Part shown: in pieces, positions 15,437 to 47,052 of the stretch
How the letters are laid out: each line of letters begins with the position of its first letter
Numbering within the stretch: the stretch's first letter is position 1
NCBI GenBank assembly: GCA_964016885.1
Contig: OZ024740.1
Span: 67,394,001-67,458,000 of the forward strand
DNA from: Eledone cirrhosa
Lineage: Eukaryota
Direction: 5' to 3'
Length of the DNA stretch: 64,000 nucleotides
Notes under the pieces: model-generated
The model's database searches: none
Told to the model about the DNA's origin: nothing
Seen by the model: the letters and a program-made list of their open reading frames with translations, nothing else
Translations under genes and position numbers: made by a program

Positions 15437-18400
15437 TTTGGAAAGTGAGGTTTTTTTACAAAATGAAAAATAACTGAGGTGTCCTACACGAGTGAATGTA
15501 TAAAGAAAAAAGATCAAATCGAAAATGCAACTGGAGTGTTATTTAAAAAATATATATATATACTTATTTGGTTCCTTTACTGGTGTAGCAGTTCTTCTGC
15601 TTTTCAAAATTAGAGTTGAGATGGACGGTCTGTGGTTTTTCTCACATCTGGTTGGTCTTTGAATGTTACTTGTTTTATATGGAAAAAAGTGGCTCGAAAC
15701 GCCAGGATTTTAGAGAAGTAATTTGGTCAATAAGTCTAATAAATTTCGCGCCAGTTCGCGTTACAAAGTTCTTCAAACAGGGGGGGGCGCGCTCAGGTTG
15801 TTTTTCCATATATGAGTGTTTGAATTTCTTTTTACTTAAAAAAGGGGCTCACGAAGGCTTTTTTTTTTATAAATGTAATTTGATTGGTTATAAATGAAAT
15901 TATGGCTGTCACGTGAACAAGTTCATTAAATATCGCGCCCGTATTTGGGAATTTATTTTGTATCCTTTTAGAGAATTTTATGACAAGCAAAATATAATGG
16001 TCAAGAGAAATGGGATGGGAGGATTGTTCTGGTTCAGTGAATATGGCTGGTTCGCTGGGGTGTCAGAATTCAGATTTTCTATTGAAATAAAGAAAGTAGA
16101 GATATGTATGTTTATTTGTGTGCTTGTGTGTGTATGTGTGTGTAGGAAAGTGATTCTATTAGTAGAAATGGGAGAGGGGGTTGTGTGTGTGGGGGTGGGG
16201 GTGGTTATGTGTGTCTGTATGGGTGTTATGTGTGTGTGTCAGTATGGTTAGCATGTTTAGATGAAGAGAATAGTGTGTGTGCGTGTGTAGGAAAATGATT
16301 CCGTTAGTAGGAATATTTTTGAATGAACATATTTTCCTTCCTTATTCGTATTTGGTCTCTTGTATTGTCCGCGCAAACGTATGTTATGTTTTATTTAGTT
16401 CGTGTTTTTATTTTCTAAAGTAGAAGGTGTTATGTGTGTGTGTATGTGTCTGTTTGGATGGTTAGCATGTTATGATGTTGACATAATGTGTATTAAACCA
16501 TATTTAATGCTGGTCTATATTTTTGAATAAACATATTTTCCTTATTTATTCGTATTTGTTCTGTTGTATTCTCAGCGCAAAGGTAGAATGATTGTCTAAT
16601 TATTTGGTCCCACACACTCGACCAACTGAATGATTTCAAAAAACTTAATAAACGGCATCAATAACCACATCCAATTCACAATGGAATACAACCAAAATCA
16701 ACTCCCATTTCTGGACATCTTAAATCTTTAAAAAAGACACAAATATTGAAACTGACATACACTACAAACCAACAGATTCCAAACAATACCTGCTATTCAC
16801 TTCCAACCATCAAAAGCACACGAAGACGAACATTCCTTTTAACCTAGCAAGAGGAATGTGCACAATAGTCTCCAATTATAAAACGCGAAATAAAAGTCTT
16901 CAAGAATTAAAGGAAATTCTACTCGAAAGACAGTACCCACCATTACTAATAAACAATGGAATAGAAAGGGCTAAAGAAATAGGCATTGATGAATTACGAA
17001 AACAGAAACAAATTCAAGGTACGTCCACTATTCTATCATATATCTCAACACACAACCCAAGAAATGCGGAAGCTTACAACATTATTCACAAGAACATCCC
17101 ACTACTGAAACAAGACCCAAGAATGAAAAAAGCCCTTGAAACACACAAAATAATCAAAAGCAAAAGACAACCGAAATCACTGAAAACATTACTCACCAAT
17201 GCCAAATTACCTACCATAAACCCACAAACAACTGTCAACAAATTTGGTCGCTCTAATTGTGGAACCTGCACCAACCTCATTGAAGGCAACACGTATACAT
17301 TTAAATCAGAACAAAAGTTTGCTGTAAAAAGTCACTTCACTTGCTCATCAAAAATTCTACTTTATGCCATTAAATGTAAAGGATGCAATGAAGATTATAT
17401 AGGACAAATTAAACTCACACTCAGAAATAGAATGACAGTTCATCGCCAACAATTACGAGATCCAACCAAGAGACAGATACCTCTAAGCGCATATCTAGAC
17501 ATATGCGGAAGTAACAAGACACGCACATTCCAAGTCATCCCATTTTACCTTTGCGTTGACAATACAATAAAACCAATACGAATAAATAAGGAAAATATGT
17601 TTATTCAAAAATATAGACCAGCATTAAATATGGTTTAATACACATTATGTCAACACCATAACATGCTAACCATCCAAACAGACACATACACACAAACATA
17701 ACACCTTCTACTTTAGAAAATAAAAACCCGAACTAAATAAACCTTAACATACGTTTGCGCTGACAATACAACAGAACAAATACGAATAAGTAAGGAAAAT
17801 ATGTTCATTCAAAAATATTCCTACTAAAGGAATCATTTTCCTACAACACACACACAATATATATATATTCTCTTCATCTTAACATGCTAACCATACTCCC
17901 ACACACACATAACACCCATATACACACACACATAACCCCCTCCATACACACACACACAACTCCCTCTCCCATTTCTACTAATAGAATCACTTTCCTACAC
18001 ACATACACACACACAATATATATATATATATTCTCTCCATCTTAACATACTCCCACACACACACACACACATAACTCCCATATACACACATACACAACTC
18101 CCTCCCCCATTTCTACTAATAGAATCATCTTCCTATACACACACAAGCACACAAATAAACATACATATCTCTACTTTAGAAAATCTGAATTCTGACACCC
18201 CAGCGAACCAGCCATATTCACTGAACTAGAACAATTCTCCCATCCCATTTCTCTTGACCATTATCTTTTGCTTGTCATAAAATTCTCTAAAAGGCTACAA
18301 AATATATTCCCAAATACGGGCGCGATATTTAATGAACTTGTTCACGTGACAGCCATAATTTCATTTATAACCAATTAAATTACATTTATAAAAAAAAGCC

Positions 18401-18762
18401 TTCGTGAGCCCCTTTTTTAAGTAAAAAGAAATTCAAACACTCATATATGAAAATACAACATGAGCGCCCCCCCCCCCCTTGTTTGAAGAACTTTGTAACT
18501 CGAACTGGCGCGAAATTTATTAGACTTATTGACCAACCAATCAAATTACTTCTCTAAAAACCTGGCGTTTCGAGCCACTTTTTTCCATATAAAACAAGTA
18601 TCATTCAAAGACCAACCAGATTTGAGAAAAACCACAGACCCTCCATCTCAACTCTACTTTTGAAAAGCAGAAAAACTGCGAAACCGGTAAAGGAACCAAA
18701 TAAATATATATATTTGTTTAAAAATAAGACTCCAGTTGCATTTTCATTTTCATCTTTTTTTG
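15437..18762 (+). mobile_element. 5'-truncated Penelope-like element with ~1.1-kb inverted pLTR/3' copy at its 5' end
   Basis: 15437-16590 is largely the reverse complement of 17540-18762; body 16595-17638 encodes RT C-terminus and GIY-YIG; flanked by TA-rich tracts. Confidence 0.88.
16595..17638 (+). pseudogene. Penelope-like RT thumb and GIY-YIG endonuclease (Neptune/Nematis-like Cys linker), partial and frameshifted
   Basis: IQFTME...LPFLDI, TDIHYKPTDSKQYL.F.S.H, then RSNCGTC, FTCSS..LYAIKCKGC.EDYIGQ...LRNRMTVH, EN.FI. Confidence 0.85.
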
Positions 18763-21270
18763 TTTATATATATATAGAGAGAGAGAGATTTACTGTGGCG
18801 AACGCACTTCTGGTGTATTTTCCCAGTTTATACCAATGCTTACGTTGTAAGAGAAGAGTGTCGTTGAATGACAGTATGACAATGTATTGCTGATAGCCTG
18901 TTTTCTCAAATCCGAAGAACGAAAGGAAAGTTAATCCAGTGAGAGTTCAACTCATAACGTAAATGGGAGGTTAAACATTTTTCTCGTACTACTCCATTTC
19001 AACTGAATACTATTTTTGTTCTAAATATATTGACATTTAACTCAAACACAACAGCACACAGTTGGGAATTTAGAGGAAGAAGAAGTGATTAAATTAATGC
19101 TGTAATTGTCTGATACTTACTTTATGAAACCCAAAGGAAGTTAAGACTAAATTGATCCCTGTAGGAATTGAACCTAGAAAGTAAATTGACATATTTAAAT
19201 ACCATACGGCAAACACTTTAACGATTTTCTCATCTCTCGTTCTGATCGCGCTGATGATATTGGCGATAATTTTCACATTTAATACTATATAACGCAGAAG
19301 TAAGAACTATAATTCGAGTATTGTTGCAAAAGCAGAATATTTATTACTTTACTTCTGCAACGTTTGAGGCATTTTAATATAGTGAAAAATACCAAGTAGT
19401 TACTATCTTTTGAGAACATTTTTACGAGAAACCAAGTGTAAAGTGGACTTTGTTTTATAGCCTGTTCAGTTTACGGTTCCCTGGTGTTACTTTAAGTCAC
19501 ATTATTTGCCTGGTAATATAGCTTAGGGAACTAAGAAGAGAAAAAATGCGATATAGAGATTTGCAGGTTGTTTCAGTCCTGATAAAAGCTAAATAATTTT
19601 TTTAATGACCCAGAACTAAAATATTCATGACGATGAATTATAATGGACTATGAGATACTTCGTAGGAAATAATGACTATTTCGTTGTTTACGATATTGCT
19701 ATTTTTTTTCAGCTAATTGTGTAGTTGTTTTTGTTATTCTTTACTGACTAGGTTATCCCTACTTGAGCAGGCTTATAGTCAAAGGCATTCAAACCATGAC
19801 TCTCCTGTCTTTCTTGAAATATTTACAGTATGAATACTGTCTATAAGTATGTTATTTTTTGCAAGATTTGGCTGTAATTTCCAGCAAGTCATGTCTTCAT
19901 TTTATCGGAGTAGTTATGGTAGAGCATTGTCTAATGTTTGTAATACAAAAAGTGGAATAAAAAATACATTTCATGTGGTGATGAATAAGCCAAGCCCAGC
20001 AAGTCTTTTCTGAAACATTGGACTTACTTGTGGCAAGCTAACCTTTTTCACTTAGAGATTTTTTTCCGACAGAAGCTGTTAGTAATTTCCTCTAATTTCC
20101 TCTAATTCTAAGTGTTTCTAACAATTTTGTTTCAGTCAGAAGCATCGTATCTCTTGAATTACATTTATCCAATGTACCTATGTCTTTGGAAAATGATAAA
20201 TTGCAATTTAATGGAGGATTGCAGCGATGTCTAGTAACTTGATATACTAAAATCAGTACCGCTAATAATGAAAGAAGTAGATATGAAACAAGAATATGAA
20301 TAATTACATAAACAATTCTACCAGGGTACAAAGGTATATATAAAGTTCAAGCTTTAACACTTCTACGGGCTACGTTAGACACCTTCATATAAATAACCCC
20401 ACCCAAATGATACACTATCTACGCAACACGTATATCAAATATTCTATACCACTGTATATCAGAGAAATCATATGTGTCAGAGAAAAATATAAGGTGTTCT
20501 GCAAGATAGGTATCTTTTAATAGACGTGTTTGCATATTTGCTTTAATTTATATGAATACCTTTTCCATGTCCTGAAATAAATTTGGGAAAATCGTATACA
20601 GGTCACTCGATGAAATATTTTGGGACCCACAATTCATAAACACTCACACTAACCAAACAACAGATATTCTACAAGATTGCCTAGGCGCGATTGGAACTCA
20701 GAATGTAAAAAGCTGGAACAAAATGAAAACCCCCAAAACATGATGTTTTATCCAGCACTAACAATTCTGCCAGATGATAGTATAAAAATATTTGGACAAT
20801 GAACATGAATATGAAAAATACGTACGTTAATATATGTGCGTGTGTGTATGTATGTATTTTACGTGTCAATCAACTCCTGCGTGCGTAATAAATGTAGAGC
20901 TTATATGTGTACATATATATTTTGTATGTGAGATTATACAGAATAAATAACAGAGACATACAGGCACACATATTGATACAAAACAAGAAGGATTAACAAA
21001 CAAAAAAATGTGCAACAACACGGTAACAGAATGAATACACATTATACAACACACACACACACACATACACACACACATACACACACACATATATACACAC
21101 ACTCACACACCCACACACACACGTGTGGCTGTGCACGCGCCAGTGTGTCTATATACTATATTACATTACATATACATCTACACGCATGAAGAATATCTTA
21201 ATGTCTTGTATATATAAAGTGATTTCATATATATATATATATATATATATGAGTGAAATTGATCGAATCC

Positions 21271-24879: not shown

Positions 24880-25920
24880 GAGTAAGACTCCCACATTTAA
24901 TGGCTTCGTTTTAACACCATTTATCCGAACACAATTACTCGAATATTCCTATAAAAAGATCACTGCAACAAGATGGTGATCATCCACCACAAACTCCTGC
25001 AGAACCTTCCACAGTTGGTCTCATGGAACGCAGTCATATAGCTTTTCGATGGCTACAAAGCAAGAATACACCTCTTGGTTGTACCCCAATGACTTTTCAA
25101 AGCATGCCGCTCAGTGAATATATGGTCGGCTGTACTACGTCCGGGGCGAAAACCACACTGTACATCAGCTAGCTTGTACTCGACAGTCTCCCTACATTTC
25201 ATTGCCAGTCACTTATTATAAACTTTACCGGGGAGGCTTAACAAGATTCCTATATAACTGGAGCAATCTCTTTTTTCCTCCGTTTATGAAAATTGGACTT
25301 ATCACTCCCGATTGTCATTCCTTAGACGCCTTTCCAGAAATCCAGACCACACGGCACGTTCGAGACAGCTAGAGATTACTTTCTCTATTTAAGGCTTTTA
25401 ACAGCTCAGGCCGAGTTACGTCCTTCCTAGTGGACTTTCCCCAGTTCTTTAATTTCTCTTGTGACCTCTGCTTCCGAGTGATTTGTCATCCCTCCCAGAT
25501 GCACCTCATGTAGATCAGAAGTTGCTGTAGTCAGCAAAGTATTCTCTCCACCTTGCGATGATGCACCTCTCTGACAGAAAAAAGCGATCGCTAATGAAAG
25601 TAGTCGAAATGGGGTTCCTCCGAAGGGTGTTCGGTGTAATGTTACTCGATTGAGTGTGTAGTTCGGAGATGAGAAAATCGTTCGAAGTAGAGCCGCTACT
25701 TTATCCAATTGAAAAATCATAGCTCCGATACTTTGGGCATGAGGTTAGAATGTGCCAGGAAATAATTTCTAGGCAGATTTTACGGACAAAACGAAACGTC
25801 GGAGATCCAGGATTAGACCCCGTGTATGATGATTGCATAACATCCATGAGCTTGGCTGATCTCACTTGAAGAGTACTCGAGGATCTTCTCAAGAAGAAGA
25901 AAAAGAAGTAGAAGAATTCA
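24880..25920. pseudogene. Degenerate RTE LINE with inverted 5' part: RT on minus strand (~24880-25560), 3' end on plus strand (~25575-25920) with (GAA)n tail
   Basis: Minus: LADVQCGFRPGRSTADHIF; plus: EMGFLRRVFGV..D.V.S..MR....VEPLL..IEKS.LRYFGH. Confidence 0.72.
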
Positions 25921-26129
25921 TATTCTTGCGGCTCTTGCGTACTGAGTTTCAATCCCGTCGGTGTAAACTTTGCCTTTTATCCTCTCAGACACAAGAAAAG
26001 AAAATCCCAGTCCAGTACTAAAGTCGATTAAATTGACCTTTCCCTTCCCTACATTTCTGGTACTATACCTAAATCTGGGCAGAGGGAGTGATCTATTATC
26101 TCCCCCCCCCCCCCAAAAAAAAAACTAAG

Positions 26130-27600: not shown

Positions 27601-28159
27601 CGTTAACACCAAGAAAACTGGGATAAATACGAGCCTGATGTGCCGTCGTACTTGGGACATATTTGAATCCTTTTTAGTAATAGTCAGAAATGAATTAGGC
27701 AGACCTGTCTTTCAGCCAGCTATCTCATATTTCCAACATTGTATATCTTCGTTTTGTAAAATATAGTTGACAAATTATGTTTATGTGTAATTGATTAAAT
27801 AAAGATCATCACTGTTGAATCAAATGAAACAAAAAATAATATTAGACATGTAACCAGCAGCAAACCCCTCTGTTTAGTCAATCAACCAGCCAGCCAGAAA
27901 GACGGCCAGTCATCTCATTAGACATAAAGCCAGTCAGCCAAACAACAAGCTACACAGCCAATTACCAGCCACTTAGTGCGCCAGCCAGCCAGTAAACCAA
28001 CCAACCAGATCGTTTGCAAATGTCGACTAAAACTTAGAGAGGCTCTCTCATGATGGAGACTGGGTATGGAGAGCCAGGTGTACAATAAACACGAGTATAG
28101 AGTCGTCCATCTTAGTTTATTGAAGTTTATTGAAGTTATATGTTTTCTGACAGTTACAC

Positions 28160-30130
28160 ACCACACGATAGGGACGATGTCATGGAATGCTAAACGTTAT
28201 TAAATCAAACATTCAACACTCCTCTGGGTGCATGTATGAGTGCAAAACCAATTGAGATATGCCAGCGTGGATAGTGCTAGATCCTACTCTCTTACGATTA
28301 TAAGGATCAAATAATTCATCTTTGTGCCTTCGTTCTGCAACCAAACGTTGGCCAATGGCATGGTGAGATATCCGTGTTTTGGATAATATTGTGAATGGAC
28401 TATTGGAACGTTATCATGAATGCAGTCTGGGAATAAGAGGGTCCACAAGTTGGTATGGAAGTTGAAAAAAACCTCGCAATCCTGGTCAGTCTTCCAATTA
28501 TCTAACAGATAATTCCTGGCTGGCGAATGATCCAGTTTAGAAACATTTCGGTTCAATCAGACCGTATCTAGATTAAATATATTAAAGCACTAGATTGGGA
28601 TAGCATATGATGTTCACAATTTAGAATGGTCGAATTCACAGATCCCAAATTTGTGATCTGTACGGTTGAGCTGAATAGGCGCCGTGGACAGTGACCTAAC
28701 TTCTGAAAGGTGAACGCATCGTCCCTGTGGTAAAATGAAGTCGGACTACCGAATTAGTTAAGCCAGCTTTGAGGGGTAGCTACATCAACAACATGGTTAT
28801 TCGCACAGAAAAAAAAAGAATATTAGTGTTAAATCCATGAGTTTTAGCAATGAACTAGTGGTACAGGAAATATATTACAAGGAAGCTAATCAGATACGTA
28901 AAATAAATATTTTGGAAACGTGCTCGATATGATATTGACGATTGACCAATTATTCAACAAGAGCAGTATGTTGTCAGAGATATAGTGCATGATTTTAAGA
29001 CAGGAAATCCCTTCAATGTGTCCAAGTGGCGGAGGTTCAGCGCGCCAAAAACACCCCAATTTGGGTTTAGCTCACCACGAATGCGTGCTACTCAATTCTG
29101 GGCAGATATGTGCAGACGTTCAAGAGCAACAATCAGGTGTTTGGGACCAGCGGTAGTCTGAATTATAGGAGGGTCTTCAATACTTAACTTGCCGGTGCTG
29201 CGAAAGACCGATAATAGCCTTTGAAATTCGAGAGGAAATAACAGGTTGCACGAGTGTCAGATCACCTTCTGTTGATGGACTGTCATATTAACTTTACCTG
29301 TCGCATTAACTTTACCTTCAGCACCGAGGGTTGCTTGTGCTGTTCATTGATGACCTGTAAAAGGGAGAACATATAGATAACTCCCGACCCATACCTCTGA
29401 TAAACGCATATTTCAATACTTTGGACATAGCGTTAAAAAACAGGTTGCGGCTTCTCCTCAATGTTCTGATTGGTGAGGCGCGAACATGCACCATCCCAGA
29501 CAGATCCATCTTCGGTAACATTCAGCTCAAGCGGGTTAATCAGGGGTTTAATCAGGTAAGACCATGGCAAGTTTGGGGCTTGATCAGCTTGGATCAATTA
29601 GAAGCTATTATCTTTCTGTCCACAGGGCAGCCGGTATTAACCCCATCACAAAAGGATGGGATCGCTGCAAGGTACAGCGAATATCGGGGGTCGGAGTGAA
29701 TAGCCACCTATCGTTGTTGTTCAGTGTCATGCACGCGATCCTTCAGTGATGCCTTTTATGTGGTGGATGCGTTTGAAAGGGTTCCTGACAGACTCTTTCT
29801 AAGGTAGTGAAGGGTTAGTTACCCTTTTCAAGTTTTAGTTGAAGGTTGAAAATCCGAGTATAGCCAGTTCGCGCAAAGGCGGAGGCGAATGTCGAGCATT
29901 GTCCGACTGAAATAGCCTACTCAAAAGATACGTTCTGTGACCCTTGGAAGTCGCCATACCTATTGGGGAATTTTATTATTTTTTCATGTTATATGTTGTT
30001 AATTAGTTTTACTCGAAAGACAACATGATGAGGTATCGTCCTGTATCCTCATGTGTCACACTTAATGTTTTATTTATAAAAATCCTTTGTGGTAAAAAAA
30101 TAATAATTCTTATTGTTTACTATTATTATT
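28160..30130 (+). pseudogene. Old degenerate Tx1-clade copy with 3' end and ATT-rich tail
   Basis: LIGEARTCTIPDRSIFGN; 3' UTR ends ...cctttgtggtaaaaaaataataatt...attattatt like the younger copies; left boundary approximate. Confidence 0.7.
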
Positions 30131-30374
30131 ATTGTTTTGCTGTTTTGTTTGTCTTGTTGTTGTTGTTATTATAAAAGTATTGCCGTCGGTTTCACATGCG
30201 TCAGACTGGTTTTTACTTTCGATTTAATTGTCAGTAATTATATTTCGGCTGTAAACTTTATAACCACAGCATCCACGTGTACCCCATAACCCAACGCTAT
30301 ATATATATATATATACACACACACAGTAGAAAGAAAAAAAAAACAAGTGAGTTGAGATTATTTTACCTTGTTAA

Positions 30375-30552
30375 GGGCGGTGGATTGGCAGTATCAGTAG
30401 AGGGTCGGACACCATGCTTTCCAGCATAGTTACGTCCCTTTATGATCTGAGTTCAAATCCCGCCGAGGTTGACTTTGCCTTTCATCCTTACGGGGTCGAT
30501 AAAATAAAGTACCAGTAATGCACTGGCCTTCTGCCTAAAGTAGAAACAATTA
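30375..30552 (+). mobile_element. tRNA-derived SINE, full length, with TSD
   Basis: A/B-box-like head; attattttacc(t/a)tgtta duplicated at ~30357-30374 and ~30549-30565. Confidence 0.9.
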
Positions 30553-30574
30553 TTTTACCATGTTATTATTTGTT

Positions 30575-32721: not shown

Positions 32722-33880
32722 TTCTCTTTAACCTTAGAAACGTTCGTTTTATTAATAAAAAAATCAAAACAAACAAATCTATTTCAAATGGCAACAACGC
32801 TACAAATATTTAAAAAACAGAAAATGAAGGGAAGAGGAAGGGCTTTGGGGCCAGAACAAAATTGGTTGAGAAACTGGGGGTAATGGGCCTAGGGCGCAAT
32901 TTCTCATTGATTTTGATGATGTTGTCAGTGAGGATAATGATTGTGAGGAACATGATGACTATTATGATGATCATGAACATGATGATCAAGATGAGGATGA
33001 AGATGATGATGACGATGATGATGATGTTGTTGTTGATGACAATGATGATGATAATGCTGTTGTTGATGATGATGATGATGATAATGATAATGACGATAGT
33101 GCTAAGATTATTATATCCGACCATCCAACCATCGGATCGATCTATCAACCAACCAGCCAAATAAACAAATGCTGTCTTTCATATAACGCTGATATTTCAA
33201 TTGCATCCCAATAAGTTTTATATAGAAATACTTGTAGTAAGATGTTTTTCACACCCACACTGATAGTAAACAGATGTATCTGTAGGATGCTTTTAGTGTG
33301 TAATAAACCTGTACTTCGTCAAACATTTCACTTTTACAGTACCTAAAGGCTTTTCTGCTGTTATTACTTGTTTTTGATGTAGTTTCTATTTTACTTGTTG
33401 TTGTTGCTGATGCTATTGAAGTTTGTGTGGTAGTGAAGGTGGTGGTGGTGGTGGTTGCTATTGTCCTCCATCTCCTCCTCATCTTCTTCTTCTTCTTCTT
33501 CTTCTTCTTCTTCTTCTTCTTCTTCTTCTTCTTCACTCACTTATTCCTGGAAGGGATTTCCCCCCATTTTCTTACTTTTATTTTATCTTATTTTTCTATT
33601 TAATTTATTTATTTGTTTATTTATTCATTCATTTGTTTATATTATGTTCGTTCACATCTTTCCACCAACATTTTCGGGGGCATCTATATAACAGTTCTTG
33701 AAATTGATACGCCCTATACAAGTGCACTCATTTTGAAATCCTGATATAATCCAGAGATATTTTGAAGCGTTTTAAGTTACATGTTGCAATTCTTTAAAGA
33801 AGACCGGAAAATATTTGGGAGCTGGAGAAAAACTATAATGAAACGGCGTGGGTGGAATAATAATAATAATAATAATAATC

Positions 33881-33919
33881 AGTTTATTTATTAGCCACAA
33901 GGGCCGACATGTAGGGGAT
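33881..33919 (-). mobile_element. ~40-bp Tx1 3'-end stub (B-type)
   Basis: tttattagccacaagggccgacatgtagggga matches the 3' end of the element starting at 40701. Confidence 0.6.
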
Positions 33920-33920
33920 A

Positions 33921-36900
33921 ATTTTTTATTGGCCACAGAGGCTATCACGAAGAAAAACATTATAGACGGCACAGAACAGTACAGGACGATACAAAGTGGG
34001 TTTTGGTCGTGTAAACAGGTTATAACAAAATCGGGCTAGAAATCCAAAAAGAAAAAAAAAAAAAGTTCCCACACAAAACCACACAAAAGACCACGGCCAC
34101 CCTGACCACCAGGGCAAGCACCCTCTCTCACTTTTCCCACTCCTCAGTCTACAGGCGTATACTCAGAGCGGGCCCATTCACTCGGATCTGACTCGCCACT
34201 TTCACCCACCTTTCAACAAACTTACTAGAAGACAGCACTTGTCTCTCCACCCTGATTTTCCTCTTCAAGTGAAACTTGAAAAGGTTAAATAGGGATTGGC
34301 TGGAGAGGAAAGTGTCCGTCTTCAACCCTTTCAATCTTGTCCACCACACAATCTCTTTCGCCATGGCCAACAGGCAGATGAAACTTCCTGCCCTTCCTCC
34401 TCTTTAAAGGAGGATGGTGGGACTATCTGCACAATGGACTCAGTCGATAACCGGATCCGTCCTCCACGCGACAGCAGCTGTTCGACATAGCTCCACAAGT
34501 CAGCAATCCTCGGGCACTGAACGAGTGCGTTCAGGACGGTTTCGTCACTCTGCGCGCATCTCGGACAGGCTCGGCTGACAGCACCTCCGTGCCTGTAGAG
34601 CTTAACCCGAACCGTTAACGCTTCCCGGTAGCACTGCCGGGCCAGGGATTTCTGGAAGTTGTCCATAGGCCCCGGTCTGAAAGTTCTCTTGAAGAGAGCG
34701 AACAGCTGATCGTCTTCGACGCCCAGGGTCTCCCCGAGAACGTCGTCGCCCTTTCCCTCCGCTCGCCCTCTATAGAACGCTGAGGTGGATGTTCCACCGA
34801 TACAAGTGCCCAGTCGGTAGAGGGCGGTTGCGCTTGGAGACATTCCAGTTTCCAAGCGCTATCCCTCGGTCTTTTCCTGATCCAGGACTGCAGCTCCGTC
34901 AAGGAGGCGAGCTGGGGAAAATGCGTCTGGCAAACGGCGGCCACACGTGTTCACCGTCAAGGAAGCACCAGAGATGTCGCAGCCTCAGCGCCAGTTTGCG
35001 CATCATCAGCCACGACATGCCTAGTCCTCTACGCAACGGGTGTTGACAGCAAATGGATCGTTTGATCATGAGAGCGCGTCCCTTCTACAAAAAGCGGAAG
35101 AGAAGGCGCTCCATTTTGGTCAGAGTTGGGCGGGGGCAATGTACGACATTCAGGCGGTAGCAGATGACGGACGCTATGTACACATTCGCCACCTCCGCCC
35201 GACCTTTCAGAGACAGCCTCCTCTCGGCCCATTTCTGGGTTAGAGAGGCCAACCTGCTTGTCACCTTGCTCCAGTTTTTCTCCATCTGGAGGTCCGGACA
35301 GAACCAGACCCCGAACAATTTAACCGTTCCTTCCGTCCAGCGCCCTACGACGGCATGGACTTTCCTCTCCAAGTGCTGAGTTGCAAGCCCACCGACTTTT
35401 CCTGGTTTATCTTTGCTCCTGTCACCGCTTCGTATTCCTTGAGAGCGGTGCCGAGCATCTGGATATGTTTGGTGCTCGTCACCACCACGGTGACGTTATC
35501 GGCGTACGCTGACACGGATCTCCCGCATCCCAGTTCGCGTGGGACCAGCCTCATCGTCTCTACTTTGTGTAGTAAAGGCTCTAGGGCCAGTACGTACAAG
35601 AGGGACGAGAGGGGGCAACCCTGGCGGACCGAGCTCATGATGCTGAAAGGCTGCGACAGGTGACCATTCACCCTCACCATCGAGCTGATGTCGCTGTGCA
35701 TCGCAGCGATCTAGCCCCTAAAAACGGGCCCGATCCGGCCGCCTCGAGGACCGCAGCCAGTTACCGATGGTCGACCCTATTGATCCAAGTTGATCAGGGC
35801 CCCACCCGTACCAGGTTCCTTAACAACCCTCTCTATGATGTATCTAATGAGATGGGGGTTGTCGTGGCTGAATCTATCGGGGATGGCGCATGTCTGCGCC
35901 TTTCTCACCAGATCACCGACGACAAGCGCCAATCTCTTTGCTGACACCTTGGCCAAAATCTTAAACTCGGCGTTTAGTTGAGTTATGGGCCTGAAGTTGT
36001 CTATTACGTTCCCCTTGTTCGGGTTTTTTCTCAGCATCGCCACCGCTCCCCGGCTCACAAAACTGCGAATGCTCCCATTATGCTGCGAGTTGCAGTAGAC
36101 ATCTGGCAAGAGGTGGCCGAACAAGTATGGCATATACGCAGAAAGCTCGTATGGCAGACCATCCAAACCTGGCGATTTACCCCTCGTGCAGTCAGACATC
36201 GCGCCCCGTATTTCACCTGCTGTTATCGGCTTTTCGCAGCATTGCGTTGCGGTCGTCGAGAGCCGAGGCAGTCCGTCGAAGTATGCACCGAAGTCCATAC
36301 ACCGATCCGGCCCTCCGCCGCTCCCGAACAATTGAAAAGCCGCACACATCTGCTCGGATTCGAGCAACATGCGCCCATTTTGATCAGGTAAATACCGAAT
36401 TGTGGACTTGTTGCCACGACGCGCCTCCACTACCCGGGCCCATTGAACGTCTTTCGTCCTCTCGTGTCTTAGAGCACGCGTTCTAGCTCTGACAATGCAG
36501 CCTTCATGCTTTGCGTTGAAGAATTGGAGTGCCAATTTCTCCGCAAGCACGCCGGTTGCGATGCATGTCCTAAACGCCTCTTCTAGTTTTCTAACTAACT
36601 CCCCCTCTACTCTATTTTCCTCTATCACTACTCCTTTTCTAAACCTTATCGATTCTACTCTAATAGCCCTTTTCAGGGCAAACCACCACCTGTTGTTGAC
36701 GATCTCAGCTGTCAACGCACGCTTAACTAATTGGCTAATCTCAGTAAGCTTTGCGCGCCAGGAACTACGCGTTCAGCTTCCAATAGCCGGGCCCTTACTT
36801 ATGGAGTCTATCTAAGTCAACTTCACAGATCACAAATTTGTGGTCCGTGTAGTCGACTACTTTAAATTGTGGACAACCTACACTAGCCTTAACTGTTTCC

Positions 36901-39686
36901 CTAAAAGAATACCCTATCTAAATACGATCTGGATGACCCGATGCGGTTTGTCCATGTACACATTGGCACATTCGGATAATCCATTTTATACCTGTCATAA
37001 CGTCTGAGCAGGTTGTTGAGGCTTTTACACCCTCCTTCCCTGTCTACTAGCCCCACATAATCCCAGCGTGCATCTAAGATACCGTTCCAGTCGCTCACTA
37101 ACACTAAAGAGCGGGACGTTCCAAGAAAGGTCTCTAGATGTCTGAAGAAATCTGGCCGTCCGGCCCCTGTAGAGGCGTAGACGGCTACTAGCCTGAAAGC
37201 ATAGCCTTCGCTGCCGGTCACGTCCAGCACCACCAACTTACCTTCTGAGTCCAGGAAGAGCCCGTATGGCGAGATCCAAGCCTCTCCGAAAAAGCACGAC
37301 AGCCCCTCGCCCGATCCCTGACGGCTGGGAGATGCGTATACATCGTAGCTGCCGAAGATCGGTGCGAAGGCTCTCGCTGATTGCCACCACATCTATGTTT
37401 AGTGACCTGAGGTCGTTGAGCAGGTGACCCTGCTTGCAAGATGACCCCAGGCCACGTACATTTATACTGCCTATTCTAAGTACGGCCATGTTGGATGAGA
37501 AACGGGATAAGGGAGAAAGGATCACTTACATTGATCGTGTGGTGAAGGGACAGTAGAACCGTCCCTTTGGGTGGTCATGGGTGTTTCCAAGAGGATGTTG
37601 GTGTATAACCTCTTGGTAACCGATTCTCTGACGTCTCCAACTGCGTTGGGGATTTTTTGTTTTAAACGTTTGTAATATTCTATTTTGATTTCAATGATGT
37701 TTATCTTTGTCGGGAGTGTTTTTGGTGTCGGTGGGGTGTAGTAGTTTTTTTCTGTGATGTCTGTGTGCTGCTTTATATGTTGTAAGAATTCTTTATTTGA
37801 AATGTTTATGGCTGTGTACTTTTTGTGGGGAGGGGTGATTTAGTTGCTGTTTTCTTGTTGTTGCTGTTGGGTGTGTGTGTTTTGTTGTGTTTGCGATGTT
37901 GGTGAATTTGGTGATGCTGGTGGTGGCGTGGTTGTTGATGGTGATGTTGCTTGTGGTGATCTTTATTTGCCTACGCTTTTGGAGGGTAAAGCTAAGGGGT
38001 TTTTCCTTTTTTGTTTTTTGTGCAGACCGTTTGCCACTTCCCTCCCGCCTCATACTCCATGTCAGATTCGTGGCGTCTGGGAGTGGTATGAGCACCACTG
38101 TTATCGGTGGTGGTAGTGGAGCCCGCTCTGGCGATTTTGCCGCCGGTGTAGCTACTGTGACTGTTGGTGTTGCCGCCACTGCTACCACTGCTTTAGCTGT
38201 GCGTGGCCTTTTAATGGGTGCCACGGACGTTGCCCTCCTACTCACCATGGAAGGGTCTTCTGACTTTTTTGCCTGCCTTGCAATTGGTAGCAGCAGATCA
38301 GGCGTCGGAAGGAGGGCGGCCCTCTTCTTGGCTGTCTTCTGCGGGCAGAAGGCCCTGACGTGACCCTTCTGCCCACAGAGATATCACTTAGGGCGCCTTC
38401 CTTCCAGGCTTATAGGGAGTTGGAGTCCTTCCTCGAAGTCTATGATATCTGGGATGGTCTCGATGCACTCCTGGTCATTCCTATTCCTGACCAGCTCTCT
38501 CTTCCCATTCTCTGTATTGGCAGTATGGTGGTTGTTCTCCTCGATTCCAGCAAGTACAGACACGGCCAGCCAAGGTATGGGAACGTCGGGCGGGACCTGG
38601 GTCACTTTGACCGTCACAATTTTCTGCCCGCAGTAGGGGGACACCAAGACTATCTCTTAACTCTTTAGGGTTTCAAAATAGTGAAACTTCGCCTCTTGGA
38701 TGTGTGTGTGGGGGGGGGGGGGGGGGGGGGTACGTCTACTATGGCGTATTTTTGCCTCGGGTGATGTGGTTTTTACGCGCCCAGATGCACCAGAATGCCT
38801 TTTGTAGTTGAGCCTACTTGGCTCCCTCCACCCGATGTGACATTTTGCTTACAGTGCGGTAAGTCACCGTGCGCATCTGCTGGTCTTTAAAGAAATCGGG
38901 TGGAGGTTTCAGAGAAACTCTATTGTCATTTCTAGTCACCATGGCTCTTGCGACTGCCATCTCCTCCTGCGTGACTAGCACTGTCTCTATATTTCGGTCC
39001 ACACTTGCGAAAGAAGTGGCCCCTATTTCAGCGGCACCATTATTACTGCCGCTACTGCTGCTACTGCTGCTACTGGTCTTGTTGTTGTTGCTGTTGTTAC
39101 TGCTACAAACGGTATTTTTGGTGTTATTGCTGTTATCACTGTAGTAGTTGGTTGTGTTTTTGGTGCCACCGTTGTTGTTGTTTTCGGTGCAATTTCTATT
39201 GTTGCTGTTGGTGTTGTCGTTGTTTATGTTCTTGTTAGTGGTGTTAATATCGTTGTTGCATTAGTTGTCATTTTTTCTGTTGTCTGTATTTTGTTTTTCG
39301 CTGTTATTGTTGTAGTTGGTCGGGTAATGTTTTTGTATTATTGTTCTCAGTGTTGTTGTCTTTGTTCACGATGTTTGTGGTGGTGTTTGTTGTATCAATT
39401 TCTGTAACCCTCCTCTCAACTTTGACGCCGTTGTCACACGACAGCAGACACATTGCTGGGGGGCATAGCTCAGCCATGTTTTTATTTTTATATTTTTAAA
39501 AGTAAAACGTTCAAATATTGTTCAAATATTTGGGCCAAAAGGCCCAAATATTATACTTTCCTCTTCACAGAGCAAAGTCCAAGGGCTTATATCCGTTACA
39601 TAACGAGAACAATTAAACAACAAATAATTATAACAGGTAAATAAACCGACTTACTGGGAGCGAGCAAAAAGACGTCCGAACAGAAC
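33921..39686 (-). mobile_element. Tx1-clade LINE copy A, apparently full length but frameshifted (ORF1 ~39477-37525, ORF2 37489-34149)
   Basis: ORF fragments collinear with the intact copy (LRIGSINVRGL, KSPGLDGLPYEL, VRQGCPLS, YADN, CPRC..ETVL); (TAA)n at both ends. Confidence 0.92.
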
Positions 39687-39716: not shown

Positions 39717-39717
<1 letters not shown>

Positions 39718-39850
39718 TTTTCTTTATTAACCACAAGGGTTTAAATAAAGTAGACATTAAGGACAGTACAGGACAATACAGGACGGTACAAATGGGCATT
39801 TCTGCGTGTAAAAAAAACAGAGGATGAAATAAAATAACAAAGAAAAATAA
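39717..39850 (-). mobile_element. Tx1 3' UTR stub (C-type)
   Basis: Nearly identical to 47102-47245 (ttaaccacaagggttta...aaatgggcatttctgcgtgtaaaa). Confidence 0.85.
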
Positions 39851-39869
39851 TAATAATAAAAATAAAAAT

Positions 39870-40052
39870 AATTGTTTCTACTTTAGGCACAAGGCCAGCA
39901 ATTACCCAGTGCATTACTGGTACTTTATTTTATCGACCCCGTGAGGATGAAAGGCAAAGTCAACCTCGGCGGGATTTGAACTCAGATCATAAAGGGACGT
40001 AACTATGCTGGAAAGCATGGCGTCCGACCCTCTACCGATACTGCCAATCCAC
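39870..40052 (-). mobile_element. tRNA-derived SINE in a TAA tract
   Basis: Family match; taaaaataat on both sides. Confidence 0.9.
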
Positions 40053-40097
40053 TAAAAATAATAATAATAATAATAAAGATAATAATAATTATTATTA

Positions 40098-40690
40098 TCC
40101 GAGTGTAAACACCTAGCCAAGACCCACTATAAGAGCTGGAGACATGATGGGCAGGGTGATCCACTGGCACCTATGCAAAGTAAACAATTTACGACATTCT
40201 GAGAAGAGGTATGAGCATAAGCCAGAAAACGATCAGGTGAAGGTGCTGTGGGATTTTAGGATACAGACGGACAAGAAACTGGAACGCAATAGACCTGACC
40301 TGGTGGTTTTGGACAAGGAAAAAAGATCGTGCCTGATTGTAGATGTGGCCTGCCCATTCGACACGAAAGTGCAAGAGAAGGATAGGGAGAAAATTAACCG
40401 ATACCAGGACTTAAAGTGAGAGGTAAAAAGGATTTGGAACTGCCATGAAGTCAAAGTGCTCCCGATTATCATAGGTGCACTAGGAACTATCTCAAAAAGT
40501 TTCCAGGGATCGTTAAAGAAAATTGGCCCCGCCACGCTTTTTGGAACGCTTCAAAAGGCATGCTTGCTGGAAACAGCAACAACCCTCCGATACGTCCTGA
40601 ATATCTGAGGCTGCAGGTAGTGGCTTGATATTCATTTCAACAAACTTTCCAGTTAACTAACATCAATGACTGAGACTCAAAGAACAATTA
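40098..40690 (+). mobile_element. 5'-truncated R4/Dong-like non-LTR element, RLE domain, (TAA)n tail
   Basis: ECKHLA..YK..RHD, IHWHLCK, LWDFRIQTD....NRPDLVV.DK..C.IVDVACP..KI.RYQDLK, PIIIGALG; in-frame stop at 40419. Confidence 0.85.
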
Positions 40691-40700
40691 TAATAATAAT

Positions 40701-43700
40701 GATTTCATTTATTGGCCACAAGGGCCGATATATAGGGGACAATACAAAAGACTGGGACAGTGGGGTTTTACAGAAAAATCGAGTAAACAATATGAATAAA
40801 CAAAGTAACAATAAAGTAACAAGAAAATTACAAGAAAAAATTCCCCAATAGTGGGGGATGACCACCTAGGGTTCGCTCAGGTAACCCACCAGTCCTGAAC
40901 GACCCAACGCTTCGGAAGCACTTTGGAAAGGCAACCCTCTCCTCTTCAAACTTACCTACCTACAGCCGCATGACCAGAGTAGGCCCACTCACACGGGCCA
41001 TTCTCGCCACATTCACCCACCTTTCAGCAAATGTACTGGGGGGAAGCACTTCTCTCTCCACCCTCACCTTCTTTTCCAAGTGAAACTTGAAAAAGTTGAT
41101 GAGGGATTGGCCGAAGAGAAAAGTGTCTGTCTTCAGTCCTTTCAACTTCGTCCATCATACAACCTCTTTCGCTACTGCCACCATACAGAGGAAAATTGCC
41201 TGCCCTTCCTGGCCAAAAGAAGGCCGCGGGTCGATCTTCACTATGGACTCGGCCGATAGCCGGATCCGTTCTACACGCGACAACAGCTGTTCAACATAAC
41301 TCCACAAGTCAGTAATGCACGGACACTGGACGAGTGCGTGCAGAACGGTTTCGTCGCTCTGCGCGCATCTCGGGCAGCCCCGTCTGACAGCACTTCCGTG
41401 CCTGTAGAGTTTATCTCGAACCGGCAGTGCCCCCCAGTAGCACTGCCAAGCGAGGGATTTTTGGAAATTATCCATCGTTCCCGGCTCGAAAGTCCTCCGG
41501 TACAGACTGGTTAGTTCGACTTCGTTGACTCCCAGAGCCTCTCCGAGTGCGTCGTCGCACTTGCCCACCACTAATCCTTTATAGAACTCGAGAGTGGAAG
41601 TTCCACTGACCGCATTGCCTGCCTGGTAGAGGGCAGTGAGTGCTTGGCAACATTCCAGATGCCAGTCAACGAGTCTCGGTCTCTGTTTGACCCAGGACTG
41701 CGACTCAGTTAAAAAAACGAGCTGCGGAAAGGCCCGTCTGACAACGACGATCACACCTGTTCACCGTTTAGGCAGAATATCTGGAGATGCCGCAGCCTCA
41801 GCGCGTGCCTGCGCATCATTAGTCACGGCATGCCCAGCCCTCCACGTAGAGGGTGCTGGCAGCAGATGGACCGCCTCACCAGCGGAACCTGATCCCTCCA
41901 CAAGAATTTGAAGAGGAGCCGCTCCAAGATGGCGAGGCGGGAACGGGAGCAAGGGAAGATAGTCAGACGGTAGTAGATGACGAACGCGATGTACGCGTTC
42001 GCCACCTCCGCCCGACCTTTCAGTGATAGCTTCATCCCAGCCCATTTCTGGGTGAGACTGAACACACAACCCGTCACCTCGTCACAATTCTTATCCACCT
42101 GGAGGTCTGGCACGAACCAAACCCCTAGCAACTTTACCGCTCCGTCCGTCCAGCGCCTAGCGACGCTGTTGGACGGCATGGACTTGCTTCTCCAGGTGCC
42201 GAGTTGCAAGCCTACTGACTTTTCCGGGTTAAGTTTTGCTCCCGCCAACCTTTCATATTCCTCCAATAATTTGCCGACCACCTCGATTTCTGAGGTGTCC
42301 GACACCATCACTGATGTCGTCCGCATAAACCGACACAGCTTTTCCGCGTCCCGGTTCGAGCGGGATGCCCTGCAACAGCTCCAGCTTCCGCAGTAAAGGC
42401 TCGAGAGTCAATACGTACAGAAGGGAGGAGAGAGGGCACCCTTGACGGACCGATCGGGAGACCTGAAACGGTTCCGGGAGGTGGCCATTAATTTTGACCA
42501 TCGATCAGGTGCCGTTGTGCATTGCAGCGATCCAGATTCTGAAGACGGGGCCGAAGCCAGCCGCCTTGAGGACAGCCTCCAGGTACCGATGGTCGACCCT
42601 ATCGAATGCTTTCGATTGATCTACATTGATCAGAGCCCCACCGAAGCCAGGTTTACACCCTACCCTATCTATGATGTATCGCATTAGGTGGAGGTTGTCG
42701 TGTATGGCCTGGTTGGGATTGCGCATGTTTGCGCCTCCCCAACCAAATGCTCGACGACAAGCGCAAACCTCTTCGCTAAAACCCTGGCCAAAACCTTAGA
42801 CTCTGAGTTGAGGAGATTTGTGGGCCTGAAATTGTCTAATGTGTCTCTCTTGTTCTCGTCTTTCCTTATCAGCGTCACTACGCAGGCTCACAGAACTGGG
42901 AATACTCCCGTTTTGCTCCAAGTTGCAGTAGAGGGCTTCGAGGAGATTGGAGAACAAGTCTGGCATATTTACGTAAAGCTCGAGGGCAGACCATCCAAAC
43001 CGGGTGACTTGCGCCTCATGCAGCCTACAAGGGCATCCTGAATCTCGGTTGAAGTAATTGGCCTTTCGCAGCGCACAGCGTCAGCCGTCGAGATTTGCGG
43101 CAATCCATCGAGGTAGGGACTGAAGTCCGCCACAATCTCTGACCCGCCACTTCCCCCGAACAACCGAGCCAAATGTTGGCGAAAGGCCTCACACATCCTC
43201 TTGGAATCGCTCAGCTCGTGCCCGTCTCGGTCCGTCAAAGACCGAATCGTGGTTTTATTACCACACTGCGCCTCTGCCACGAGGGCCGATCGAACAGCTT
43301 GGGTTCACTCGTTTCTCAGATCACGCTCCTTAGCTCTGAGAATGCAACCTTCGTGTTTCGCATTGAAGAAATGGTCTAATGCCATTCTCGCCGCTAGCAC
43401 ATCAGTTGCAATGTCACTACCAATAGCCTCGTCTAACTTATCTAACAACTCCCCCTCCTTTCTATATTTCACTAATGCTACTTCTTTCCTAAACTCTATC
43501 GACATTACTCTAATCTCTCTTTTGAGAGCCCCCCACCATCTATTGTTGACGACTCGCCCTGTCAACTTTTTTTTAACTAAATTGTTGACCTGGTCCCTGT
43601 AAGACTTACGTGCCGGAAATGACATGTTTAGCTTCCAGTAACCAGATCCTAACCTACGCGTCTTATCTAGGTCAACCATACAGATCACAAACTTGTGATC

Positions 43701-46257
43701 TGAAGAGGCGACCGTTTCAAACGTGGAGAGCTTACACTATTTCTGTCTATTTTCCTAATGAATATCCTGTCTATATACGATCTAGATGACACTATGCGGT
43801 TAGCCCAGGTCCAGACTGGCGCATTAGGCAATTCCAGTCGGAACCTGTCAGACAGTTGGAACTGGCCGATCAGGTTATTGAGGCTTTTGCACCCCCCACT
43901 CCTATCGGATACGCCCACACAGTCCCAGCGTGCGTCTAAGATGCCGTTCAAGTCCCCGCTAACAGTAAAGGGCGAGACGTACACAGAAAGGCTTCCAGGC
44001 GTCTAAAGAAGTCCAACCGTCCTGCCCCAGTAGGAGCATAGACGGCCACCAGTCTAAAGGCACCACCTTCATTATTGTTCACGTCCAGGACCACCAACTT
44101 CCCGTCCGGGTCCCGGAAGATCAACCTTACCTCGAGATCAAGGCCTTTCCTAAACAGCACTGCCACCCCGCCTCCCATTCCCGGCCGGCTAACAGATGCA
44201 AAGATCTGATAGTCGTCGAAAATGGGGGCTAGTGCGCGCGTGTCGGAAATCCTGGTCTCGCTGACTGCAATTACATCCATTTCTATAGACCTGAGGTCGT
44301 TGAGCAGGTGACCCTGCTTCCAGGATTATCCCAGGCCTCGAACATTTAAACATCTCACTTTTAATACGGCCATGTTGGCAGGTTAAACAGAGAGAGAGGA
44401 AGGTTTACTTACCTTCCGGGCTCTTGTGAAGGTCGGGTTGTTCGACCTCCATAGTTAGTGGGGTTTCTTTTGAGAACCCCTTTAAAAGTCTTGAAGTGGG
44501 TTTTACGTTCGGGGTTCCCACGTCCCGAGAAAAGCTGTCTCGTATTTCTTTGAATATGTCGAGCGACATTCCCACCAGTACCACATCTTCCGGCACGCGA
44601 AATGTGCTCGATTTAAAAATTACCCCTCTTTTTGTATATTTTCACTTCGTGCTACTAGGGCCATCAATTCCTTGTTGGCCCTTCTGAAGAGCACGAAGTT
44701 TTGTATGTATTGTTGGTGTGATTTAATTTGTTTGCGTGGCTGTGGTGGTGATGGTTTTGGTGGTGTTGTATTGGTTGTACCTGTGTTTGTTGTGAGTGCG
44801 GAGTCTGTGGTTTCAGATGTTTGTGTGTATATTTGTTCTTGCGTCTGTTTCGGTTGTTTGCGTTTTGGGGATTCTGGTGATGGTGATTGTGGTGTTGATG
44901 TTGGTGTTATTGGAGAGATGTTTGCGTGGGTGGTGTCAGCGCTTTTTATTGTGGGTGCTTTTGTGCTTTGTTGAGTTTTGTTGTTCTTTTTGTGTTTCCT
45001 TTTTTGTATTTTGGGGGATTTGGGATTTCCCTCATTGTCACTACTGGTAGATGAGGGGTCTGTGTCTGTAAGTGTGTCTGTATGTATGTTTATGGTTTTA
45101 TTGGTGTGTGTATTTTTTTTTTGGGGGGGGGGGGGGATTTGACAGCTTTCCTCGTTTTCCCCTGGGTGGTCAATGTTGGTGGTGGTCTTTCTATTGATGT
45201 TGTTGTTGGTGGTTTTGCCGGTGCAGGTGTTGGTTGTGATCCTCGCCCCGGCGTCGGCAGCAGTGGAGCCTTTCGACCCCTTGCCTCTTTCAGCAGTTGA
45301 GGGCAGAAGGCTAGCAAATTGGTTTTTTCCCCACAAACAAAACACTGCGTCCTTTTGCCTTCGGTCATAATGTGAATGACAGTCCCATTCTGAAGGCGGA
45401 TGTGGTCCGGGATTGTCTTCACATTCTCGGGCCTGATCTGGAGAAGGATCTCTAGGTCACCCCGGACCAGTCCTCTCTGGCCGTTCTGGTCACTTCTATA
45501 GGGACTGTATCCGTCCCCTCCACAATCACACATCCCAGAAGCCACCACATGTCAAGTCCTGGTGGGATTCTGGGAATGCGGAGACGGGACGTTCTTTTTC
45601 CCATGTGGGAGGGGTACATTATGACCTTGCTGGTTTTGCAAGGAGTCATAGCGTGTTTCATAGCGAGGGCTTCTGACTTGAACAACACCGAAATGGTGCC
45701 GTACTGTCTGCCCCTCTCTATGTACTGGGTGTCTTCTCTGATGCACCTCAGCGCGACTTAGACATCTTCTTGTGGGATTAACGCTGCGCTATTTGTTTTC
45801 ATGTTAGTGGTGTTGATATTGTTGTTGTTTTTGTTATTTTTTTTTTGTTATCTGTATTTTCGTTGTCGCTATTACTGTTATTTTTTTTCAAAATTAGAGT
45901 TCTCATTGGTATCATTGGTGTCTTTGTTTACCTTGTTTGTGGTGGTGTTTGTGTTATCAATGTGTGTTAATTTCGCTGTAGCGCTCCTCTCAACTTCTAC
46001 GTCGTTGTCGCACGACAGCCGACATATCGCTGGGGGGCGTGGTTCAGCCATGTTTCTTTTTCTTCGTAAATTTTTTAACATGTAAAAAAAAGTTCAAATA
46101 TTTGGGCCAAAAGGCACAAATATTATACTTTCCCCTTCACGGAGCAAGGTCTAAGGGCTTATATCCCTTACACAACAAGAAATATTTGACAACAAATAAT
46201 TTAAACAGGCAAATAAAGCGACTTACTGTGAGCGAGCAAAATACGTCCGCTTAGACC
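40701..46257 (-). mobile_element. Tx1-clade LINE copy B, near full length, frameshifted (ORF1 46051-44405, ORF2 44373-40960)
   Basis: EN (VIAVSET, GDLNG, SYIDRIF), RT (QGCPLS, YADD) and zf-RVT fragments; ORF1 knuckle remnant CFVCG; (TAA)n at both ends. Confidence 0.92.
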
Positions 46258-46451: not shown

Positions 46452-46467
46452 ATAATAATAATAATAA

Positions 46468-47049: not shown

Positions 47050-47052
<3 letters not shown>
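46468..47052 (+). mobile_element. 5'-truncated R4/Dong-like element, RLE domain, (TAA)n tail
   Basis: YIHWIMCK, LWNFSIQTDRKIDANRPDIILKD...CLLIDMSVP..EKLSKYKDLEIE...PVVVGALG...LMGTAHILRK. Confidence 0.88.

Follow-up and report, generated by a model that had tools for sequence, protein, structure and literature searches.

A 3′-terminal hairpin common to an octopod SINE and Tx1-clade LINEs: a candidate SINE–Tx1 partnership in Eledone cirrhosa

The SINE copy at positions 30374–30548 of the DNA studied here raises the question of which LINE mobilises its family. The window (the whole stretch that was analysed, 64 000 nt of contig OZ024740.1 of Eledone cirrhosa) contains LINEs of several types. In an earlier note, made from the sequence alone, the Tx1 LINEs were proposed as the partner, on the grounds of a short 3′-end match, a common ATT target and a common strand.

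A profile derived from 10 of the copies (E ≤1e–12) identified 13 clear copies or pieces of this SINE, which is approximately 180 bp in length and has a tRNA-like head, in the 64 kb of the window; five further decayed remnants were found in the same search. The family is non-coding and dispersed and has a fixed 3′ end, with 5′ truncation in two of the 13 copies or pieces. Pairwise identities among seven near-full copies ranged from 83 to 98 %. A B box, GTTCAAATC or a one-base variant of it, was present in eight of eight copies; the A box is weak, and neither ARAGORN nor Rfam returned a tRNA match for the head. There are two length classes: a long one, with a C-rich tract before the tail, and a short one, which is without approximately 30 nt at that place. 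The long class comprises 63479–63670, 63681–63850 and two decayed copies. Loose ends in sequencing runs X1 and X6 extend into the long form, which indicates that it is common elsewhere. The copies in the window, with the internal features of the first, are:

30374–30548, plus strand: SINE copy that prompted the question; belongs to the short variant, with the loop changed to CTTCT and 12 bp deleted ahead of the tail
30386–30396, plus strand: A-box-like motif of the tRNA-type Pol III head; weak, up to two mismatches allowed
30451–30459, plus strand: B box, GTTCAAATC
30525–30535, plus strand: position of the tail hairpin, GGC-loop-GCC
1150–1339, minus strand: SINE copy beside (CA)n/(TA)n, with a 12-bp duplication beginning ATTAT
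1946–2066, no single strand: two head-less SINE tails, inverted relative to each other, within (TA)n
3007–3184, minus strand: SINE copy inside (ATT)n
4623–4858, plus strand: SINE copy with a perfect 18-bp duplication
25930–26081, plus strand: long SINE variant, decayed
39873–40054, minus strand: nested-cluster SINE copy that shares 97.7 % identity with the 30374–30548 copy
46276–46453, minus strand: SINE copy in the nested cluster, flanked on both sides by (ATT)n
54749–54858, minus strand: 5′-truncated SINE (54769–54838) with a perfect 20-bp duplication
63060–63253, minus strand: long SINE variant, decayed
63273–63440, minus strand: short SINE copy with a 15-bp duplication
63479–63670, minus strand: long SINE variant, C-tract preceding the hairpin
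63681–63850, minus strand: long SINE variant, 5′-truncated; best match to Tx1-like 3′ ends from outside the window (29/39 nt)

The copy at 30374–30548 is a poor and atypical example of the family, because its loop is mutated and 12 bp have been deleted. At 63053–63860 (minus strand), four copies of differing age are arranged head to tail via their ATT ends. The sequence ATTATTTT directly abuts three SINE ends (30549, 39873 and 54769); it is a possible Pol III terminator and also lies within the duplicated target. Scans for the SINE core, in collections that yielded no octopod DNA, gave no match in viral contigs, none in genome contigs and a single metagenome locus with a different tail. The SINE central motif is joined to an unrelated tail at L001:1627–1657 (minus strand), in a metagenome contig that does not look octopod. 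A text search of the literature for the core motif produced unrelated matches only.

The Tx1-type LINEs of the window, and the R4/Dong-like fragments used as controls, are:

28000–30108, plus strand: old Tx1 copy with an approximate 5′ limit and a degenerate end motif, approximately 250 bp upstream of the 30374 SINE
33880–39686, minus strand: decayed full-length Tx1 copy, end hairpin GGCC-CTTGT-GGCT
39717–39845, minus strand: 5′-truncated Tx1 3′ end, hairpin AACC-CTTGT-GGTT
40701–46257, minus strand: decayed full-length Tx1 copy, end hairpin GGCC-CTTGT-GGCC
47102–53138, minus strand: full-length Tx1-type LINE between two (ATT)n tracts; ORF1 (50827–52935) and ORF2 (47372–50791) open; end hairpin AACC-CTTGT-GGTT
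53169–54748, minus strand: 5′-truncated Tx1 copy, end hairpin ACC-CTCGT-GGT
40100–40686, plus strand: R4/Dong-like LINE 3′ fragment with an (AAT)n end, control without tail match
46480–47051, plus strand: R4/Dong-like LINE 3′ fragment with an (AAT)n end, control without tail match

The ORF2 product of the open element carries APE, RT and zf-RVT domains, in a two-ORF layout with an N-terminal APE domain and a C-terminal zinc motif. Its closest named relative is a protein of Argonauta hians (73 %), and its RT region is 40 % identical to an alligator protein named transposon TX1 149 kDa. The best solved relative is human L1 ORF2p (E 1e–51), and the RT tree was constructed without an L1 outgroup. 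As both frames remain open in one Tx1 copy and the SINE copies are so similar, the two were both likely to have been active recently. The Tx1 end previously quoted at 33881 does lie there (at 33880), but it is not a stub; it closes a decayed copy of 5.8 kb. A hairpin of the type GGGCC-TTTT-GGCCC was observed in the Tx1 5′ untranslated region, at 39519–39550 and 46100–46120 (minus strand).

Most of these elements form a nest between 33.9 and 54.9 kb. Read along the minus strand, it begins with the truncated SINE, a truncated Tx1 copy and the full Tx1 copy with both frames open, continues with a reversed R4/Dong-like end, a SINE, a decayed full Tx1 copy and the second reversed R4/Dong-like end, and closes with a SINE, a truncated Tx1 end and the other decayed full Tx1 copy. 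Nearly all of the joints are (ATT)n. The strand arrangement described earlier was confirmed for 33.9–54.8 kb, with three of three SINEs and five of five Tx1 copies on the minus strand and both R4/Dong-like pieces on the plus strand. That pattern does not constitute independent evidence, however, because an ATT tail and an ATT target already dictate the strand. The two fragments at 40100–40686 and 46480–47051, which we take to belong to the R4/Dong clade, are C-terminal parts of an RT protein with no APE domain on record.

Other repeats are present in the window. A 273-aa frame at 13696–14900 (plus strand) fuses a PHD finger to an RTE-like C-terminus, and this is presumably an internally deleted RTE element. 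At 15496–18771, inverted repeats flank a 304-aa frame (16724–17638) that has no Pfam match and that we assume to resemble the endonuclease end of a Penelope-type element. A 593-bp tandem triplication (99 % identity) with a 288-bp inverted piece is situated at 9587–11558.

Comparison of the 3′ ends of the SINE and of five Tx1 copies revealed a common hairpin of 3–4 bp with a CUYGU loop, 15–16 nt before the ATT tail. In the Tx1 ends it reads GGCC-CUUGU-GGCC, GGCC-CUUGU-GGCU, AACC-CUUGU-GGUU (twice) and ACC-CUCGU-GGU, and in the SINE GGC-CUUGU-GCC. The pattern CCTTGTG-N14-17-ATTAT was matched nine times in the window, each time at a SINE end (five) or a Tx1 end (four), as against 0.11 expected. 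A hairpin descriptor gave 13 matches, 10 of which were SINE or Tx1 ends with ATT 15–16 nt downstream, where 0.06 would be expected. When ends were aligned from the terminus with the ATT repeat excluded, the last 24 nt of the SINE at 39873 agreed with four of the Tx1 ends at 17, 15, 14 and 14 of 24 positions (shuffle p 0.0005–0.0025) and with the fifth at 12 of 24 (p ~0.05), while none of 90 other ATTATT sites, taken as a control, reached 13 of 24 and the two Dong-like ends agreed at 8 of 24. A matrix made from the five Tx1 ends only, without the ATT tail, placed SINE tails at ranks 7, 8, 10, 11, 19, 22, 38 and 45 among 127 940 positions; copies with a damaged loop were ranked 162, 377 and 662. 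In addition, the Tx1 end motif is tandemly duplicated at 33880–33945 (minus strand), the second copy, near 33940, having matrix rank 6.

The pairing of the stem was also assessed. On two alignments, 81 % and 86 % of stem cells were paired, compared with 26–61 % for slid partners. Double changes that keep the stem paired (G-C/C-G and G-C/A-U) were observed, representing only two or three independent events. The stability of the hairpin is close to that of shuffled sequences (z from +0.4 to –2.0 in the window), and another fold was preferred in five of 12 ends. An unanchored gapped scan of the window did not single out the Tx1 ends, which scored 7 as against 9 for unrelated places. The 3′-end match, previously described as suggestive only, is real and stronger than first stated. 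The neighbouring Tx1 stems (GGCC/GGCC or AACC/GGTT) nevertheless differ from the GGC/GCC stem of the SINE, and the C-tract of the SINE is absent from the Tx1 ends.

It was also of interest to compare target sites. For the copy at 30374–30548, the duplication is:

30357–30373, plus strand: 5′ copy of the 17-bp target site duplication, starting ATTATT
30549–30565, plus strand: 3′ copy of the target site duplication, which provides the ATTATT end

The two copies read ATTATTTTACC-T/A-TGTTA, with one mismatch in 17 bp. The other SINE duplications measure 18 bp (4623–4640/4841–4858), 20 bp (around 54769–54838), 15 bp (63273–63440) and 12 bp (1150–1339). All five resolvable duplications (12–20 bp, in unique flanks) start with ATTAT in both copies, against a background of 0.0028 per position; five more copies have ATT-rich repeats as flanks, in which the duplication length is unreadable. 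The ATTATT start claimed in the earlier note thus holds as ATTAT in five of five, with one correction (4624 should be 4623). (ATT)n flanks all three full-length Tx1 copies on both sides. SINE and Tx1 insertions both start at ATTAT, the length of the Tx1 duplication being unreadable within (ATT)n. The ATT target alone does not point to Tx1, because a tail repeat matching the start of the duplication is likewise described for RTE-driven SINEs (PMC6007223).

Additional data were provided by relatives outside the window. Forty-nine loci were obtained when genome contigs were searched with a profile; 43 of these derive from head-to-tail arrays of Tx1-like LINEs in an assembly (G001) filed as a bacterial MAG. 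The LINEs are intact, and the arrays have a period of 6.4–6.8 kb and occupy small contigs of up to 94 kb (L002–L042, L045, L050 and L052), with no microsatellite or poly(A) between units; these contigs are likely to be eukaryotic carry-over. Their ORF2 domains are the same as those of the octopod Tx1, the RT regions are 50–51 % identical, and the two form a joint clade at SH-aLRT 100. Among the 43 loci, which overlap and represent 12 distinct end sequences, the motif GGCCTYGTGCC was found 642–727 nt after ORF2 in 33 and GGCCTAGTGCC in four, the remaining six ending too early. AATAAA follows 18–22 nt past the motif in 32 of 32 distinct contexts, and 5′-truncated units of 3.1 kb retain the motif and stop just after it; the motif is therefore part of the LINE 3′ terminus. 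In the whole of G001 it was matched 66 times (reversed control, three), with 62 matches on array contigs, mostly at the unit period, two on a large contig and two on a small contig that are not LINE ends. The latter contig (L051; G001:C5:17759 and 18045) holds a different repeat in two copies 286 bp apart, each containing GGCCTTGTGCC.

These outside ends have the stem of the SINE rather than that of the window Tx1 copies, and the stem is preceded by a C-tract as in the long SINE; they have no ATT tail. The top blastn match of the long SINE in 421 872 bases was one of them (29/39 nt, E 0.06; short variant, E 26). Five of six outside ends gave shuffle p values of ≤0.009 against both long SINE copies, the sixth (L002) not being significant. 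The short SINE gave 0.005–0.12, and two window Tx1 ends gave 0.045–0.9; by local score, the window Tx1 ends do not match the outside ends. One Dong-like control was weakly positive against two outside ends (p 0.013 and 0.018). In a matrix ranking of the window based on the 12 outside ends, the two long SINE tails took places 1 and 5. Restricted to the core, this ranking is partly circular, since it was through the loop motif that the outside ends were first detected. By these alignments the SINE and Tx1 have homologous 3′-terminal sequence, as would be expected of a tail-sharing pair of the stringent type; the match is short and is best against the sister-clade ends.

The six more distant Tx1-like loci (L043, L044 and L046–L049) showed no such end hairpin, which indicates that the hairpin marks one branch. 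Two of these are poly(A)-ended, a third is interrupted short of its end, a further pair is located at 5S genes and the last is found between U1 genes. The element between U1 snRNA genes (L043) and those beside 5S rRNA genes (L046 and L047) are on contigs filed under bacterial MAGs, likely host carry-over. A second hairpin follows the CUYGU hairpin at L013:8143–8161 and at the equivalent places of L002, L003, L018, L026 and L028, with stems that vary by family; in the long SINE at 63681 a similar second stem, CTTGTA/TACAAG, is possible. No Tx1 relatives and no matches to the tail pattern were found in viral contigs, and Rfam and ARAGORN reported nothing at two outside loci.

Sequencing run X6 showed a summed depth of 6,466–10,553 over the final 85 nt of the Tx1 end at 40701, compared with 12–50 further upstream; summed depth is not equivalent to copy number. 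The peak could reflect something abundant that shares only the Tx1 terminus, either a SINE subfamily with a tail closer to this Tx1 family or truncated copies of other Tx1 families; an octopus SINE subfamily with a tail like the end at 40701 is our assumption. Among the matches listed for four runs on 39717–41000 (X4, 42 records; X22, 0 reads), there was no joint of a SINE body to a Tx1 end.

The hypothesis presented here is that the SINE is probably mobilised by a LINE of the Tx1 clade. The 3′ end of a LINE of the Tx1 lineage would be the source of the last 40–50 bases of the SINE. The SINE would be transcribed by Pol III, and Tx1 ORF2p would bind the small hairpin with its CUYGU loop. The APE endonuclease of ORF2p would then nick the strand opposite ATTAT, the AUUAUU end of the RNA would pair with the freed DNA end and prime reverse transcription, and a staggered second nick would yield the duplication. 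The binding, nicking and priming steps are modelled on target-primed reverse transcription in general. The short SINE arose when an internal deletion in the long one took out the C-tract but spared the hairpin, and this suggests that it is the hairpin that matters.

The proposal that the neighbouring Tx1 family is the mobiliser fared less well than the proposal of a Tx1 partner as such. At the level of the clade, a Tx1 partner is supported by the paired hairpin and by the SINE form of the motif in sister-clade LINE ends; it could not be pinned to the family next to the SINEs. As the sister-clade ends carry the motif in the form seen in the SINE, the tail is likely to be Tx1-derived, with a closest template other than the neighbouring family. 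Those neighbours have a different stem and no C-tract, so the mobiliser may be an octopod Tx1 family other than that of ORF2 47372–50791. The tail donor indicated is of the GGC/GCC-stem type, and the partner is hence either an unseen octopod Tx1 element of that type or a neighbour that tolerates the stem and reads the loop. An octopod family with the GGC/GCC stem, absent from the window, and the neighbouring (ATT)n-targeting family are both possible rather than probable, the former being ahead by a small margin.

The tail could instead be a Tx1 relic; in that case the recent copies would be the work of a different APE-type LINE, RTE or CR1, able to accept the tail and to prime on ATT. The dissimilarity between the SINE stem and that of neighbouring Tx1 copies would suit such a history. 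RTE, CR1 and Dong-R4 are listed as recently active beside L1-Tx1 in Octopus vulgaris (PMC13282606, Table 1), the first base of RTE-driven SINE duplications is described as following the tail repeat (PMC6007223), and partner switching is described for SINE superfamilies (PMC4824008). The short SINE, however, has kept both hairpin and spacing despite the loss of approximately 30 nt next to the hairpin. The RTE-like element at 13696–14900, to which the RTE comparison is confined since the pieces at 25026–25531 and 55015–56230 lack 3′ ends, has an unrelated end and no match to the hairpin descriptor. CR1 and L2 typically leave short target duplications or none, whereas those of the SINE are 12–20 bp. 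A relic tail is accordingly considered unlikely.

Convergence or chance, i.e. ends made A/T-rich by a common microsatellite plus a coincidence of seven bases, would account for the failure of the unanchored search to pick out the Tx1 ends and for the marginal hairpin energy, and the independent sequences are few. Yet the ATT tail was excluded from the end-anchored and matrix tests, the shared core is G/C-rich, and sister-clade LINEs, in which there is no ATT tail, agree with the long SINE along a stretch of 39 nt, C-tract included, at their true 3′ end; this explanation is thus very improbable. Mobilisation by the (AAT)n-ending R4/Dong-like LINEs of the same nest is harder still to credit. They occupy the same microsatellite and adjoin SINEs twice, and Dong-R4 insertions are described as the most recently active LINE insertions in O. 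vulgaris (PMC13282606), but their (AAT)n ends are on the strand opposite to the (ATT)n of the SINE. This candidate was rejected, as its two ends match the short SINE copies at 8–10 of 24 positions (p ~0.8).

With a Tx1-clade partner as the preferred reading, the literature on octopod and other mollusc SINEs can be considered. Octopus tRNA-derived SINEs, designated OK, OR1 and OR2, were reported by Ohshima and Okada (1994), as cited in PMC4824008, PMC4758252 and PMC5804259. The present family resembles them in being an octopod tRNA-derived SINE and, compared by description, may be the same family or a relative; the passages that cite them assign them no Tx1 partner. The partners named for mollusc SINEs in the relevant parts of PMC4824008, PMC11481361, PMC4758252, PMC5786205 and PMC5804259 are CR1, CR1-Zenon, L2, Nimb and RTE, and Tx1 is not among them. 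In the O. vulgaris annotation, SINEs make up 11.6 % of the genome, with most recently active families unclassified (PMC13282606); that annotation and PMC8967140 list L1-Tx1 and SINEs in unpaired form. No partner LINE for the O. vulgaris SINEs was named in the literature found, and the search located no animal SINE that shares its tail with Tx1; Repbase reports and Ohshima and Okada (1994, 2005) were outside its scope and may bear on novelty.

It is slightly more likely than not that, in one branch of animal Tx1 LINEs, the template is chosen through a 3′ hairpin with a CUYGU loop instead of poly(A), and that a major octopod SINE family captured this signal. If so, this would be an animal SINE–Tx1 pair joined by a shared tail, with Tx1 rather than RTE or CR1 as a driver of SINE expansion in octopuses, and stringent hairpin-based template choice would have survived in the L1/Tx1 group. 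The window would also offer a compact test system: the hairpin measures 11–13 nt, the target is ATT, and a two-ORF element is present intact.

The eel pair UnaSINE1/UnaL2 is a known example of tail sharing. The present pair resembles it, and the CR1, L2 and RTE pairs in general, in having a shared 3′ stem-loop and a short terminal repeat, which are described for such pairs as the recognition signal (PMC3747384, PMC4824008). It differs from them in LINE clade and in that they include cases with experimental proof, whereas the relationship with Tx1 is proposed from sequence. Within the L1 clade, tail sharing is described for maize and sorghum SINEs with LINE1-1_ZM and for SINEX-3_CR with L1-1_CR of Chlamydomonas; SINEs with L1 tails account for three of 58 pairs, in plants and a green alga (PMC3472496, PMC3747384). 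In those pairs, as here, a LINE of the L1 group shares with the SINE a conserved 3′ stem-loop in which the stem is variable and the loop conserved. They are plant or algal, however, with a UCU loop and, in the alga, a poly(A)-ended match of approximately 80 nt, while the present pair is from an animal and the Tx1 branch, with a CUYGU loop and an ATT tail. Kibi and Koshi, Tx1 families of fish, likewise insert in simple repeats, but in (TC)n and (TTC)n instead of (ATT)n (PMC4494074). Crocodilian SINEU has been linked to Tx1-Mar by its target (Mariner-N4_AMi), by age and by shared U1/U2 heads (Kojima 2015, PMC4494074). That link, as described, is not based on the tail, whereas the SINE examined here has a tRNA-like head and an ATTAT/(ATT)n target and is connected to Tx1 by the shared 3′ hairpin; in both cases, a SINE family is inferred to be mobilised by Tx1, with a target preference in common.
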